20,000 bases of DNA from an uncultured virus (IMG/VR IMGVR_UViG_3300010885_003647) (Duplodnaviria > Heunggongvirae > Uroviricota > Caudoviricetes): the IMG/VR virus record IMGVR_UViG_3300010885_003647. One strand, given 5' to 3'. Position 1 is the first letter of the stretch. The number at the start of each line of letters is the position of its first letter. A program made the translations under genes and the position numbers. The notes under the pieces are model-generated. The model was given only the letters and a program-made list of their open reading frames with translations. It was not told where the DNA came from and did not search any database. Of the stretch, positions 6,544-12,216 are shown in pieces.

Positions 6544-9500
6544 ATGCCATTAGTTAATGTTGAAGGTGTAGGTCTAATCGACTTTCCTGAAGGTATGTCG
6601 GGCGAGCAAATTGATGCTGCGGTTAGAAAAGATATCCTTCCACAATACCCCGATATTGCCGCTAAAACAAAACGTGGATGGGGTGAAGCCCTAACTGACG
6701 TAGGCGCTAGTGCTATTAAAGGTGTTGGTGCTTTAGCTCAGTTACCTGGGCAGATTGGGCAATTAGCAGGTGTTGTAGCTCCTACCGAAACTAATACTGG
6801 ATTGCAAGGTATCGGTAAACAAATAGAACAGTTTGGTGAAGAAGCTAAATCTCCAATACTTAAAGGTAAAGAAGTAGTACGTGGACAAAAGATTGAACAA
6901 GCAGATGGAATGCTTTCTGAATTTGGTACTGCTTTTAAAGAGACAATTAAAGACCCAGCATTACTATCTTCATTCTTTGCAGAACAATTACCAAACTTAG
7001 CTGGTTCATGGGGTGGTGGCTTACTAGCTAAAGGTACAGCTAAAGCTTTGATGATGGCTACTACTGAACAAGCATTGGCTAAAGTAGGGGTTGCAGGTGC
7101 GGTTGGTACAGGCGCTATCCAACAAGGTGCTGATGTTGGTTCTGATACTTACGAAACCATCTACAAACGTCTTATTAAAGAAGGTATGGGGGATGAGCAA
7201 GCTAATGGTATTGCTTTATCCAAGGCTCGTGTAGCCGCTTTAGAAGCCGCAGGTTTATCTTTAGGTACAGCCGCACTTCCTGGTGGTACTGCTATTGAAC
7301 GTGCATTAGTTGGTAAGGGTTTACCTGGAGCTGGTGGATTTACTAAAGGTCTTTTGGGCGAAACAGCTTCTGAAACTATCGAAGAAGGTGGTGGTAAGCT
7401 TGCATCCAACTTAGGCGTACAAGAAGTATTTCCTGAGACAAGTTTAACTAAAGGTGTAGGTGCCGCTGCAGGTATGGGCGCACTGGGCGGTGCATTGTTT
7501 GGTGGTGTTGCTGGATATGTAAATGCAGACCGGGCTACTCCTGAACAGAAACAAATAGTAGCTGATGGTATCGATACTGTACAACAGCTAGAAGATCAAG
7601 CTCGCCGTGATGCGTTTGAAGCCGAGCAAAAAGCTATTGAACTCCGTGCCTTGGAAGAACGTCATGGGTTTACAAATTCAGCAGCATACGCTGAACTATC
7701 TGCAGAAGTAGAAAGATTAAAAGCAAAAGCCCAATTAGCGTTCGCTAAAGCGGATAAAGGTAAAGCAGAGATGTCTGCGTTTGCAGAAGCGCAACCTGAT
7801 TTGTTTGGAATGGTTACTGCCGAAAAACAAACACAAGAAGCTGAAGTTCAGCCACCTGTAGAACAACCTAATCAATTATCTTTACCTCTTGAAGATCAAC
7901 AATCACTTGCACTTAACGCTCCACCGCAACCATTAAATTTAAACTTACCTGCTCAGACGCAAGCTCCAGTAGTTCAAGGTCGCCCTATTACGCTAGAAGA
8001 TATTAAAGGTATGGGTATTGGTGGTGGTCCAAACGTAAAGATCAAACAAGCTATTTTAGGTAAAGATTTAACTGACCCTAAACAAGCTGCAGAAGTTAAA
8101 GCTGCTTTGGAAGAATACGCTGGTGGTGATCGTAGTGCTAGCATTATTGCTAAAGTAGAAAGATTTTTAAATAGCGCTCCATTCCTAGAACAACAAAAAC
8201 TTAGTTTGCGTCGCCCGTATGGTAGTATGAAGAAACCTGGAGTAGAAACTCCAACGGAAGAAGAACAAGCACTCTATCAAGCGGAACTAGAAGCACTACA
8301 AACATCGGAGGAACAAAATGCTGGAAAACCTATTGAACCTCTCAATGGAGGAAATGAGCCAAGCGTTCGCGTGCCTAGCAAGCGACCTGCCATCCCCACC
8401 GCAACTAAAAAACCTAAACGACGAGGAGTGGTTCCTCCTGTCGATACTACTGGACAACCTATTGGAGCAGAAGTACCAGTCGAGCGTACACTAGGCGCAA
8501 AACCATTAACCTTAGAAGAAAAAGCGGCGCAGGCTATTGCCCAGCGTCAAGCCCCTAAAGGTGGTTACAACCCAGATATTCAAGAACCTTCTGTAGAACT
8601 CAGTACTCGTCATGCTAGAGAATACAAAGAAGCTATTGGTAACTACTTAGAAAACGCAAACTATATAGGAGCTAAGGCTCTTGATGCACTTGCTGGTGAT
8701 ATGCACGCTGGGGACAACCTTACAGATGCTAAGAGAGCGTACCGTGGGTTATCTGAAGAACAAAAGGCTTACGTAGCAGAGAAAACTAAAGAGTTAGAGA
8801 AGTACACTCGTCGTGGTGATGCGTATGCTAAACAACAAAACGAAGAAGTCGCAAGACGTAAAGCTTTCCAAGGTGAACTTGACGAACAAGAGAAAAGCCC
8901 TAAGCTTGAACGCATCCTTCCTGGTTCAACAAACGAAGAGCTTACGCAAGCTGTGCAACGGGGCGACCTTAACGCAGCACTAAACGCAATCGCCAAAGAC
9001 AAATCTGACACATTTAACATCTTAGAGAAACTGGTCTCAAATCGCCTTTTGGCAAATAAAGGTAGCCTACCTAAGATTGAAGTTGTACCCGCTGGAACTA
9101 TTAAAGATGGCGCAGCGCAATACAATCCGTTTACCGATACCGTTCAGATCAATGAGGGTGAGGTTGATTCGCATACTGTGCTACATGAAACCGTTCATGG
9201 CTTCTTGCACGCATTGATTCAGAAGTTTGAGGCAGGTGCTAAGAACAAAGGTATTGCTGATCTTAAAACTCTATACGACTTTATTAAAGAGAACCACCCT
9301 AACGTAGCAGAAGAATATGGCATGTCTAGCTTGACTGAGTTTGCATCTGAACTTATGTCTAACCGCCAATTCCAAGAAACCCTTGCACAGATTCCATATC
9401 GTGCAGAAGCTCAAAACTTATTTAGTGCATTCATACGCGCTGTATTAAACGCATTAGGGTTATCCCCAACATCTAAGTTAAGCGCACTAGCTAGCGGCTT

Positions 9501-12216
9501 GTTTGCGGCAGATCGTTCCCTTGCTATAGGTCGTAAGATTCAAGAGGATGTAGTTACAGGTAAAGAGACCTTACCTACGGCTAAAGTAACCCGAGACTTA
9601 GAAGCCATATATAAAGCTACTGGACCAAAAACAGTAAAGCCTGCTACTACGCCAATACAGTCAGTTCAAAATACTAAGAAAGAAATTAAAAACTTAGCGT
9701 CTAGTTTTGAGACTATGTATCTGTCATCTGATGCTGCTTTAAACAATGCTATTCGTAAGGGTCTAGAAGCTAACGGCAAGGATTGGGATACTACTAAGAA
9801 CGCAATGCTTGAAATAAGCACCTCTCAGGCTACTCATGCCGATGCTGTGGCAGATCAATTCTTAAGAGAAGGTAATGTTGAGTACGACCCTAAGTTACAT
9901 AAGTGGGAAGTCAAATCTGCCAAAGATAGCTGGGCAAAACTAATTACAAAAAACTTAGCTGATATTGCTAAGAAGTATGGTATTACTCAAGACCAAGCAA
10001 ACAATTATGCTAACCAAGCTTTGGTTGCTAGCCGTTTAGATGGACTATCTAAATCAGATAAAGAAATCTACAGTCACATGACCCCTGAGCAGATTAAGGC
10101 TGGTCTATCATTCTTTGAAGCAATACCTGAGCTAAAGGCAGTTCGAGATAGTTGGAATGCAATTCGTAAAAATGTAATGAAGGTAGCAATTGAAGGCGGT
10201 TTGTACAACGAACAACAAGCTGAAGAACTACTAAAGATTATGGACTATGTGCCATTTTTCCGTATTGAGCAATTAGAACAGAACGCTGGGCCTAGTGAAC
10301 GTGGTGGTCGTGGTTTACTTAACTTTGCTAAGAACTACAAGATTAAAGGTAGTGAGCAGGAAGTTAACGATATCTTTGATAACATGGGTCGTTGGACTAG
10401 CTATACCGTATCCCGTGCAGTTAAGAACCGTTCCGCATTAAGCTTAAAGAATGCTGCAATTCAATTCCTACCAGAAGGCGAAGTGAAAGAATTACGCATA
10501 GACGAGAGTACAAAGAAAGAACAACACGTAATTGATATATGGGAAAATGGACAACGTAGGAAATACGAATTTTCAGATCCATTGTTTATACATGCTTTCC
10601 AAGGTATTGATGGTATAGCTATCCCTCATTTTGGTATGGCGCAAGCGGCATCTAATATATTACGTAAGACTATTGTAATGGTGCCTATCTTTTCTATTAG
10701 TCAGCTTTCTCAAGATTCGTTTGGTGCTATGCTTACTTCAGGACTTAAGCACCCTTGGGCATTACCATTAGAAGTAGTTAAAGAATTTACTAAGACTCTA
10801 TTTAATAAAAGTAAAACCCATAAAGAACTGACCGCTATCGGTGCAGTAGGGACAAAAGATTATTCTGCAACTACTGGGTTATTGGGTGCTACTAGACGAG
10901 AGACTATTGAAAGAGAAGCAGGGTTAAAGAAGACTCCTATTTGGTCTCGTTTATATAACAGTTTAGAAAAGTTCTCAATGACATCTGATAATGCTGTTCG
11001 TCAAGCTGTTTATAATTTGACCATGAAAGAAACTGGGGATAAAGCTTTAGCTACTGAGAAGGCTTTTGAACTTATTAACTTTAAACGTACAGGTGCTAGC
11101 GCTAAGGTGCAATTGCTTCGTCAGGTAATACCATTCTTTGGCGCATACTTGCAAGCACAAAACGTTATCTATAAGACTCTAGCTGGTAAAGGCATATCTC
11201 CAGTACAACGTAAAGAAGCCCATCGTATCTTAGCTAGTAATGCTTTGAAGATCGGTGCTTTAGCGTTTATGTATGCCGCCCTTGCAAGTGATGATGAAGA
11301 GTATCAGAAGATGGATCCAGCTATACGTGACCGTCATTTATTAATTCCTGGTACAAACTTCATGCTCCCTATGCGTAGCGATTTGACTTTAATGCCTAAG
11401 TTAATTGCGGAATACACCTATCTTGGTATGACAGATAATGGCTTTACGGATGGTAAAAAGATTCGCCGTGCTATGACTGATGCCCTTGTCAATGCAGTAC
11501 TAAGCCCAACCGTTGCACCGCAAGCAATTAAACCAGCCTTAGAGGTATTGGTAAACTACGACTTCTTTACAGATCGCCCAATTATCGGACAGGGTATTGA
11601 GCACAAAATTACTGCAGAGCAGTATACAAATAGTACATCTGAATTTGGTAAGTTTATTGGTAGTTCGGGATTGATTGCACCTGTGAATGTAGACCACTTG
11701 GTTAAAGGCTATATGGGTACTGTAGGGGGATTAGGGTTAATGTTTACAAATGCTGTTGTAAACGCAGGTTCAGACCAACCAAAACCCGAAAAGAGTCTCC
11801 AAGATACTGTTTCTTCTGTACCTGGATTGAGTGCGTTTTTTGCAAAAGAGTATGGCAACGCAGATAAGAACGATTTCTATGAGTTACGTAAAGATGTAGA
11901 TAAGGCAGTAACTACATTTAATTCAATGAAAAAGCAAGGGCGTGTTGCAGAGGCTAAAGAGTTTTTAGAAGAAGGTACATTGAATCCTCTTAACCCATTT
12001 AGCCCAAATGTAAAAGACTTACTTAAAGTTAATAAGCAGGTGGACAACATTAACAACCAGCTAACCAAGCTAAGAGATTACGAAAAGAAAATATACGACT
12101 TGCCTGAGTCTAGGATGAGTGCAGAAAAGAAAGGTGAAGAGATTCGCCGTGTTCGGGAGATGGAGAAAGTATATTTAAGTAATGTGCACAAGCTACGCCA
12201 AATGGCTGGCTATTAA
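6544..12216 (+). CDS. Large polyvalent ejection-type protein with zincin-like metallopeptidase motif and LPD38-like C-terminal domain
   Basis: 1890 aa. N-terminal IDFPEGMS motif and G/A-rich hydrophobic region (aa ~45-325). HETVH (HExxH) at 9184-9198 with a downstream EFASE third-ligand motif at 9337. The C-terminal RHLLIP...NYDFFTDRPI...PVNVDHLVKGYMGTVG pattern resembles LPD38. Last gene of the structural arm. Confidence 0.75.
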   Translation: MPLVNVEGVGLIDFPEGMSGEQIDAAVRKDILPQYPDIAAKTKRGWGEALTDVGASAIKGVGALAQLPGQIGQLAGVVAPTETNTGLQGIGKQIEQFGEEAKSPILKGKEVVRGQKIEQADGMLSEFGTAFKETIKDPALLSSFFAEQLPNLAGSWGGGLLAKGTAKALMMATTEQALAKVGVAGAVGTGAIQQGADVGSDTYETIYKRLIKEGMGDEQANGIALSKARVAALEAAGLSLGTAALPGGTAIERALVGKGLPGAGGFTKGLLGETASETIEEGGGKLASNLGVQEVFPETSLTKGVGAAAGMGALGGALFGGVAGYVNADRATPEQKQIVADGIDTVQQLEDQARRDAFEAEQKAIELRALEERHGFTNSAAYAELSAEVERLKAKAQLAFAKADKGKAEMSAFAEAQPDLFGMVTAEKQTQEAEVQPPVEQPNQLSLPLEDQQSLALNAPPQPLNLNLPAQTQAPVVQGRPITLEDIKGMGIGGGPNVKIKQAILGKDLTDPKQAAEVKAALEEYAGGDRSASIIAKVERFLNSAPFLEQQKLSLRRPYGSMKKPGVETPTEEEQALYQAELEALQTSEEQNAGKPIEPLNGGNEPSVRVPSKRPAIPTATKKPKRRGVVPPVDTTGQPIGAEVPVERTLGAKPLTLEEKAAQAIAQRQAPKGGYNPDIQEPSVELSTRHAREYKEAIGNYLENANYIGAKALDALAGDMHAGDNLTDAKRAYRGLSEEQKAYVAEKTKELEKYTRRGDAYAKQQNEEVARRKAFQGELDEQEKSPKLERILPGSTNEELTQAVQRGDLNAALNAIAKDKSDTFNILEKLVSNRLLANKGSLPKIEVVPAGTIKDGAAQYNPFTDTVQINEGEVDSHTVLHETVHGFLHALIQKFEAGAKNKGIADLKTLYDFIKENHPNVAEEYGMSSLTEFASELMSNRQFQETLAQIPYRAEAQNLFSAFIRAVLNALGLSPTSKLSALASGLFAADRSLAIGRKIQEDVVTGKETLPTAKVTRDLEAIYKATGPKTVKPATTPIQSVQNTKKEIKNLASSFETMYLSSDAALNNAIRKGLEANGKDWDTTKNAMLEISTSQATHADAVADQFLREGNVEYDPKLHKWEVKSAKDSWAKLITKNLADIAKKYGITQDQANNYANQALVASRLDGLSKSDKEIYSHMTPEQIKAGLSFFEAIPELKAVRDSWNAIRKNVMKVAIEGGLYNEQQAEELLKIMDYVPFFRIEQLEQNAGPSERGGRGLLNFAKNYKIKGSEQEVNDIFDNMGRWTSYTVSRAVKNRSALSLKNAAIQFLPEGEVKELRIDESTKKEQHVIDIWENGQRRKYEFSDPLFIHAFQGIDGIAIPHFGMAQAASNILRKTIVMVPIFSISQLSQDSFGAMLTSGLKHPWALPLEVVKEFTKTLFNKSKTHKELTAIGAVGTKDYSATTGLLGATRRETIEREAGLKKTPIWSRLYNSLEKFSMTSDNAVRQAVYNLTMKETGDKALATEKAFELINFKRTGASAKVQLLRQVIPFFGAYLQAQNVIYKTLAGKGISPVQRKEAHRILASNALKIGALAFMYAALASDDEEYQKMDPAIRDRHLLIPGTNFMLPMRSDLTLMPKLIAEYTYLGMTDNGFTDGKKIRRAMTDALVNAVLSPTVAPQAIKPALEVLVNYDFFTDRPIIGQGIEHKITAEQYTNSTSEFGKFIGSSGLIAPVNVDHLVKGYMGTVGGLGLMFTNAVVNAGSDQPKPEKSLQDTVSSVPGLSAFFAKEYGNADKNDFYELRKDVDKAVTTFNSMKKQGRVAEAKEFLEEGTLNPLNPFSPNVKDLLKVNKQVDNINNQLTKLRDYEKKIYDLPESRMSAEKKGEEIRRVREMEKVYLSNVHKLRQMAGY
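8318..8494 (+). CDS. Putative overprinted 58-aa protein nested in the +1 frame of the giant gene
   Basis: GGAGG at 8307-8311 lies 6 nt before ATG 8318; TAG at 8492-8494. Translation MLENLLNLSMEEMSQAFACLASDLPSPPQLKNLNDEEWFLLSILLDNLLEQKYQSSVH looks helical, while the host frame here is a disordered P/K-rich linker. Confidence 0.6.
   Translation: MLENLLNLSMEEMSQAFACLASDLPSPPQLKNLNDEEWFLLSILLDNLLEQKYQSSVH

Follow-up and report, generated by a model that had tools for sequence, protein, structure and literature searches.

Can a stretch of DNA that already encodes part of a very large phage protein encode a second, much smaller protein as well? The question is raised by a 20,000-nucleotide segment (hereafter the window) of an uncultured tailed phage of the Caudoviricetes (IMG/VR IMGVR_UViG_3300010885_003647), which is part of a 23.5-kb IMG/VR virus record and carries an 1890-codon gene for a giant polyvalent protein. 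An initial annotation of the window proposed that a short reading frame with its own ribosome-binding site lies hidden inside this gene. Based upon the comparative analyses described below, we conclude that positions 8318 to 8494 very probably constitute a real, independently translated nested gene; this judgement concerns the existence and translation of the gene and excludes its function.

A nested open reading frame with its own start signals

The two elements at issue are as follows, with positions counted from the first letter of the window.

8307..8311, + strand: Shine-Dalgarno (SD) sequence GGAGG of the nested gene, read directly from the DNA, 6 nucleotides 5′ of the ATG.
8318..8494, + strand: nested gene, 58 codons and a TAG stop, in frame +1 relative to the giant gene, recognised by its open and conserved frame, its pattern of diversity, an AlphaFold2 (AF2) model and related protein clusters.

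The start and stop signals reported in the initial annotation are indeed present. The start codon occupies positions 8318-8320 and the stop codon positions 8492-8494, and the spacer between the SD sequence and the ATG, AACAAA, is 6 nucleotides long. This open reading frame (ORF) falls entirely within the 1890-codon ORF at 6544-12216, whose strand it shares and relative to which its frame is +1, and it is the longest ATG-initiated ORF in any alternative frame of the giant gene. When the codons of the giant gene were shuffled, an ORF of at least 58 codons preceded by GGAG arose in only 1.2% of 500 shuffles. The window sequence by itself is suggestive, not conclusive, and it is because of the comparative evidence from relatives, rather than this sequence, that the nested gene stands far beyond chance.

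Relatives of the giant gene

In a large protein collection, 60 proteins including the query match residues 420-800 of the enclosing protein, at up to 65% identity. The part of the enclosing frame that runs across the nested ORF is collinear in an alignment of 30 proteins, with a single 4-residue insertion in one sequence. DNA of relatives was collected from 79 loci in IMG/VR and 24 loci on metagenome contigs. Nineteen loci match residues 560-700 of the enclosing protein and 16 of these are distinct; together with the window they form a close set of 17 gene versions. A first IMG/VR scan with a single piece of the enclosing protein gave no match, and neither did a nucleotide search of cultured phages with positions 7800-9000. 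The matches that cultured phages did give were distant ones, confined to the C-terminal third of the giant protein. No relative was found in prokaryote genomes scanned with the giant-protein alignment, and hence there is no prophage and no clue to the host.

Conservation of the frame and of its start and stop

All 17 close gene versions have an uninterrupted +1 frame of 61-73 codons at the aligned place, and its peptide is clearly alignable among them. All 17 share the aligned stop codon, which is TAG in 13 and TAA in four. The +2 frame of the same sequences is full of stops, and only about 1.7% of 58-codon windows in the +1 frame are open across the close gene set. In each of the 17 versions an ATG lies 6-10 nucleotides after GGAG, AGGAG or GAGGAG. 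One clade (L004, L005, L008, L020 and L006) uses an ATG nine codons further 5′, and because this shifted ATG carries its own AGGAG, the start signal has been kept even where its position has moved.

An ATG with an SD sequence is again the rule among distant members of the family. Among 71 distinct members, 62 have an ATG and at least 56 an SD-like motif, compared with 5.4% at random positions, and several of the 15 cases without the motif are artefacts of automatic start choice. The initial annotation had named findings that would speak against a gene, among them a lack of homologues, stop codons within the frame in relatives, and loss of the SD sequence or ATG in close relatives. What we found instead were numerous homologues, an uninterrupted frame and retained start signals.

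The 3′ end has features of its own. In 143 of the 150 representatives of the family that were listed, the residue directly before the stop is His (104) or Gln (39). Read in the enclosing frame, the bases at the nested stop specify a small residue that hardly varies and then Leu, Ile or Val. Constraints from both frames may thus hold the 3′ end of the nested gene in place.

Selection on the overlap

If the nested frame is translated, nucleotide diversity within the overlap should reflect its codons as well as those of the enclosing gene. On either side of the overlap, diversity at codon positions 1, 2 and 3 of the enclosing frame follows the usual order, with values of 0.346, 0.263 and 0.507 on the 5′ side and 0.300, 0.223 and 0.513 on the 3′ side. 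Within the overlap the values are 0.389, 0.274 and 0.145. Among the 62 sliding windows with data, position 1 exceeds position 3 only in those that begin at codons 552, 581 and 610. Read in terms of the +1 frame, the diversity of the overlap is lowest at position 2, intermediate at position 1 and highest at position 3, as in a coding frame.

The same asymmetry is evident at individual sites when the 17 sequences are compared with their consensus. Variants occur at 60 of the 97 possible sites where a change is silent in the +1 frame and alters an amino acid in the enclosing frame, but at only 27 of the 136 where it is silent in the enclosing frame and not in the +1 frame (odds ratio 6.5, Fisher p 1e-10, uncorrected for shared ancestry). 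The dual-coding signature and synonymous-site constraint anticipated by the initial annotation are thus borne out by the drop at position 3 and by these counts, and selection over the overlap appears to act mainly on the nested frame.

The alternative-frame ATG ORF that ranks second in length within the giant gene (8819-8983, + strand, +1 frame, 54 codons) was considered as a second nested gene and rejected. Its diversity has the normal pattern of the enclosing frame, with position 3 highest, and the ORF looks like a chance occurrence.

Distribution of the nested family

A profile built from the peptide was applied to loci L001-L104, where all 36 distinct open pieces proved to be nested, on the + strand, in the +1 frame of ORFs whose lengths of 1057-2292 codons hold as far as the loci reach. 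The nested peptide is also found in giant genes that are only about 27% identical at the protein level (L098, L103). In several loci the central 600 codons of the enclosing gene no longer align, yet the nested peptide is recognised with E values of 1e-14 to 1e-21. Overall, 25 of the 27 distinct loci that span the region carry it.

Three relatives of the giant gene (L051, L054 and L055) have no recognisable nested copy. These genes are about 39-40% identical in the C-terminal part, and they keep the N- and C-terminal parts as well as the HExxH motif described below. The small helical domain that is encoded upstream of the nested gene in the window likewise has no recognisable copy in them.

A second subfamily, found with the query P0070, comprises 53 IMG/VR loci, and nesting in the +1 frame holds for all 53. 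In 16 of these the enclosing ORF is similar to the giant protein of the window within 3-kb flanks. The peptide is nested in the +1 frame in three further loci as well. In all 99 loci where the profiles hit, the peptide is nested in frame +1 within a long ORF, and no free-standing copy was found. When IMG/VR was scanned with P0085 and P0077, no family member was recovered; two loci from the P0085 scan (L167, L168) were not confirmed by the profile, and the same is true of two weak loci from P0068 (L172, L173).

Among 1.84 billion representative proteins the family profile matches 455 at E ≤ 1e-3 and 48 at E ≤ 1e-10, each being the representative of a cluster at 50% identity. Nearly all of the 150 representatives listed are 47-110 amino acids long, with the domain at the very C-terminus. 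None of the 455 clusters carries a name, and the nine that were looked up are unnamed or called ‘hypothetical protein’, on contigs of 2-32 kb. The search for homologues proposed in the initial annotation was therefore successful with respect to these clusters and the nested loci, but tblastn of the 58-residue protein against cultured phages at E ≤ 10 gave no match. Judged from these loci, the gene is old and occurs in a broad clade of uncultured phages, in every case in nested form.

Two irregular members deserve comment. P0118 (202 amino acids, on a 2.8-kb contig) has an N-terminus that looks by eye like a sigma factor, followed by the last two thirds of the small domain, and is most likely a chimeric assembly. 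At L134:640-680 the enclosing ORF stops about 50 nucleotides past the nested gene, after a C homopolymer, and resumes in another frame at 807. This break is probably a sequencing error; if real, it would represent a split version of the giant gene.

Predicted structure of the small protein

With an alignment of 35 sequences, AF2 models the +1 product at a mean predicted local distance difference test (pLDDT) score of 85, with helices at residues 3-6, 10-22, 28-32 and 35-57. The product is thus predicted to be a compact bundle of three main helices. The initial annotation had described an acidic, Leu-rich protein with two helices joined by a Pro-rich segment. This description agrees with an isoelectric point (pI) of 4.05, with a hand count of 14 Leu among the 58 residues, and with the two long helices predicted in the model. 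Acidity is common in the family, where the median pI is 4.7 and 56 of 71 members fall below 5.5.

Searches for known relatives of this fold or sequence provided at most leads. The +1 product of the window has no Pfam match, and the best E value among 35 members is 0.049. The best PHROGs match (E 0.0083, in 3 of 35 members) and the best match among PDB sequences (E 0.31) are not significant. The latter aligns profile positions 4-51 with residues 256-304 of chain C of PDB 8qma, which we take to be the C-terminal domain of the RNA polymerase alpha subunit, and is a lead only. Foldseek found no match in the PDB at E ≤ 0.001. The best of 48,161 chains in VIA-align (Z 4.8) is a homeodomain-like three-helix structure, a level that reflects a common arrangement only, and the best score in the ESM Atlas, 0.76, is a lead at most.

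The protein begins with an acidic amphipathic segment, and no lysis genes are adjacent. An outer-membrane spanin of the Rz1 type was rejected as a candidate identity, given that the protein has no signal peptide or lipobox, that its only Cys is residue 19 within a predicted helix, and that its pI is 4.05.

The enclosing gene

The gene that surrounds the nested ORF, and the parts of it that bear on the argument, are listed here.

6544..12216, + strand: giant phage polyvalent protein gene of 1890 codons, recognised by its ORF, the Pfam domain LPD38, PHROG 18222 and 60 full-length relatives.
7978..8211, + strand: small helical domain of the enclosing protein, residues about 479-556, just 5′ of the nested gene (pLDDT about 80; profile).
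8317..8496, + strand: Pro/Gly/Arg/Lys-rich linker, codons 592-651 of the enclosing frame, on the same DNA as the nested gene (AF2 pLDDT, composition, codon use).
9184..9198, + strand: HExxH motif, residues 881-885, of a presumed zincin-like metallopeptidase domain (read in the translation; conserved in relatives).
11293..11805, + strand: LPD38 domain, residues 1584-1754 (Pfam PF18857, E 2.2e-22, 80.5 bits against a cut-off of 27).

The giant gene is the last of a + strand structural block that opens with a gene for a virion structural protein, and replication genes on the other strand come after it. In 29 relatives of the giant protein T878, H881 and E882 are invariant and H885 is nearly so, while no peptidase model was matched in a Pfam search of the protein. 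An LPD38 domain above its cut-off, a length of 1890 amino acids, a conserved HExxH and an upstream virion structural gene place this protein among the polyvalent proteins with LPD38, which, as described by Iyer et al. 2017 (PMC5512222), likewise combine LPD38 with a conserved HExxH and adjoining virion genes. The comparable gp47 of phage phi24B, a protein of 2811 amino acids with LPD38 and a metallopeptidase, is reported in a recent preprint to be abundant in virions and is proposed there to be an ejection protein (bioRxiv 10.64898/2026.04.10.717836). The giant protein of the window is probably packaged in the virion as well, and we infer its label of ‘ejection protein’ from the LPD38 domain and the place of the gene in the genome.

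Over the nested gene, the enclosing frame is unusual in the ways that the initial annotation had noticed. Pro makes up 18% of residues within the overlap and 4.6% gene-wide, CGA accounts for three of five Arg codons within the overlap as against three of 73 outside, and GGA for six of seven Gly codons as against 19 of 150. In an AF2 model of residues 470-760, residues 592-651 have pLDDT values below 50, except for model residues 166-167 between two low-confidence segments. They are flanked by the helical domain at about 479-556 (pLDDT about 80) and by another helical domain from about residue 679 (pLDDT above 90). Because folded parts flank this low-confidence segment, the enclosing protein appears to read the DNA of the nested gene as a floppy linker.

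A profile of the small helical domain matches 5-335 nucleotides 5′ of the nested ORF in 32 loci and gives no match in loci without the nested ORF, an association that is confounded with phylogeny. At the other end of the protein, residues 1-340 (6544-7560) are rich in Gly and Ala and hydrophobic, with stretches that by eye resemble glycine zippers, for example around residues 300-330. This composition suggests that the N-terminal part might be membrane-active, as has been proposed for ejection proteins.

Discussion

A small gene embedded in a larger one on the same strand is a known architecture in phages, and the family described here is itself unnamed and is missed by standard annotation. 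No promoter-like or terminator-like site was found on the + strand in 7900-8700. Since no + strand promoter-like site is evident, the simplest reading is that the nested gene would be translated from the same late mRNA as the giant gene, by internal initiation at its own SD sequence and ATG.

Several points weigh against this reading. The length of the ORF alone is not significant, as an ORF of at least 58 codons appears in 39% of codon shuffles (n = 500). The counts of variant sites, and those of starts, SD-like motifs and pI among the 71 members, treat related sequences as independent. The three giant-gene relatives that have no recognisable copy indicate that the gene is not universal. Nor does a copy show up in seven cultured relatives (Aeromonas phiARM81mr, Achromobacter CF418P1, Escherichia Pondi, Vibrio D274, Vibrio 1.232.O, Synechococcus MinM2 and Pelagibacter HTVC034P), whose giant-gene regions gave a best E value of 0.28 with the family profile. 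Finally, no RNA-seq runs that carry the window sequence are listed, and the DNA runs that do carry it have shares of at most 0.19.

What the small protein does is a separate matter. Our best guess, though a doubtful one, is that it works together with the giant protein. It could then serve as that protein's own chaperone, or help in the assembly or packaging of a giant protein whose long N-terminal part is hydrophobic and Gly/Ala-rich. We make this guess because the gene lies in a late structural block, because only nested copies were found, because the upstream domain of the enclosing protein co-occurs with it, and because of the composition of the N-terminus. Chaperones of type III secretion are small, acidic, helical proteins that are encoded with their substrates and bind them directly. 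The small protein resembles them in being short, acidic, predicted to be helical and encoded with a candidate substrate, which it would have to bind. Two considerations call for caution, however. The results from Pfam, PHROGs, the PDB, and the fold and complex predictions favour no function, including the three suggested in the initial annotation (a chaperone, an inhibitor of the metallopeptidase domain or an exclusion factor), and permanent nesting can be an evolutionary lock-in that does not necessarily entail functional coupling. Complex predictions of the small protein with residues 1-345, 478-560 and 660-1055 of the enclosing protein scored 0.00 in both runs, and, having no controls, give no verdict.

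Alternatively, the gene may be real but its product may act on the host cell, in takeover, counter-defence or superinfection exclusion, with its nesting a historical accident. Small acidic phage proteins often inhibit host proteins, and the low pI of the family is consistent with such a role; the weak, non-significant resemblance to the RNA polymerase alpha subunit is at most a lead in this direction. Nevertheless, the nested gene sits in the late structural block and not among early genes, and it is never free-standing in the 99 loci, whereas one would expect a portable effector to have left its nested position now and then. We regard this possibility as tentative too; a free effector and a partner of the giant protein are about equally likely, and the remaining probability falls on something else.

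Other explanations would dispense with a separate gene. One is that what is conserved in the overlap is a nucleic acid element, for instance a structured RNA, a binding site or a signal for packaging, with the open +1 frame as a by-product. It is true that lowered diversity at position 3 of the enclosing frame could stem from any constraint at the sequence level. However, the drop recurs every three bases, in the order of positions that a coding +1 frame would give, and the frame is open in more than 70 distinct sequences, some of which are recognisable only at the protein level. Shuffled sequences are predicted to fold no less stably than the RNA of 8270-8500 (z 0.23), the surrounding region has none of the + strand promoter-like or terminator-like sites looked for, and the alignment yields a confident protein fold. 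Such an element is therefore a highly improbable account of the conservation.

The other is that ribosomes translating the giant gene enter the +1 frame by programmed frameshifting, which would yield an N-terminal product of about 590 amino acids with a folded 58-residue tail. Two observations lean this way: the +1 frame of the window is open for nine codons before the ATG, and P0212 (566 amino acids, on a 59.9-kb JGI contig) joins the N-terminal part of a relative of the giant protein to the small ORF. In relatives, however, a +1 stop precedes the start, directly in L089, with one codon between in L028 and L006, and with two in L025, and the open piece of L122 begins at Met. Because of these stops just before the start, a frameshift could not deliver the whole conserved domain. 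In addition, the ATG is conserved together with its SD sequence and moved with it as a unit in one clade, and no common slippery motif was seen by eye in the aligned DNA. As for P0212, the roughly 60 residues that precede its small domain resemble the upstream domain read out of frame, and the fusion is probably an indel in a single contig. We consequently rejected a frameshift product, which we consider scarcely credible.

An independently translated nested gene, the reading that we prefer, has precedents of several kinds. Rz1 of phage lambda lies embedded in the +1 frame of Rz, the two encoding a two-component spanin, and Rz1 is a secreted lipoprotein with a lipobox Cys. As with Rz1 and Rz, a short gene here is contained entirely within a longer phage gene of the same strand, is read in the +1 frame, and carries a ribosome-binding site and a start of its own. 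In contrast to Rz1, the product is acidic and soluble-looking and has no signal peptide, and the enclosing gene encodes a giant virion protein rather than a lysis protein. Spanin genes occur as embedded, overlapped or separate pairs, whereas the present family is nested in all 99 loci.

Small viruses offer another comparison, for example with the overprinted genes B, K and E of phiX174; reviews on the subject are PMC8227390 and PMC3494269. Here, as in such viruses, two proteins come from one stretch of DNA and one frame is disordered or compositionally odd. In the present case, however, the disordered frame with odd codons belongs to the long enclosing gene, and the nested frame is the ordered and more constrained one. 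Moreover, the genome is that of a large tailed phage, in which pressure for compaction is weaker.

The lambda proteins G and GT and the T7 proteins 10A and 10B are products of programmed frameshifting in phage structural genes, which depends on a slippery site and involves no separate start. There too a second frame in or behind a structural gene yields an additional protein, but the nested gene described here has its own conserved ATG and SD sequence, with +1 stops before the start.

Full-text literature searches found no description of the nested gene, which does not prove that it is unpublished. It is not mentioned in the passages of PMC5512222 and of the phi24B preprint (10.64898/2026.04.10.717836) that were read, and the word ‘overlapping’ has no occurrence in the former.

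A broader reading would join these strands, and we consider it unlikely as a whole. Disordered linkers of giant virion proteins might regularly harbour small genes that are translated independently, with the acidic three-helix family, of at least 455 clusters, among the largest examples. Its product would then be an obligate partner made in cis that, like type III chaperones, solubilises the N-terminus of the giant protein or marks the protein for packaging. The small gene could even be the older frame. If so, the giant gene would have formed in the overlap by reading through an older small gene.

Gene callers forbid nested genes, and the family has consequently gone unannotated inside long phage genes, surfacing only as nameless ‘hypothetical’ mini-proteins in the nine contigs that were looked up. 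A nested gene of this kind can be ancient, widespread and under stronger selection than the frame that surrounds it. The small protein is short, predicted to be well folded, and easy to express and to knock out silently, and it would offer a concrete way to study the synthesis, solubility, processing or packaging of giant ejection or polyvalent proteins.

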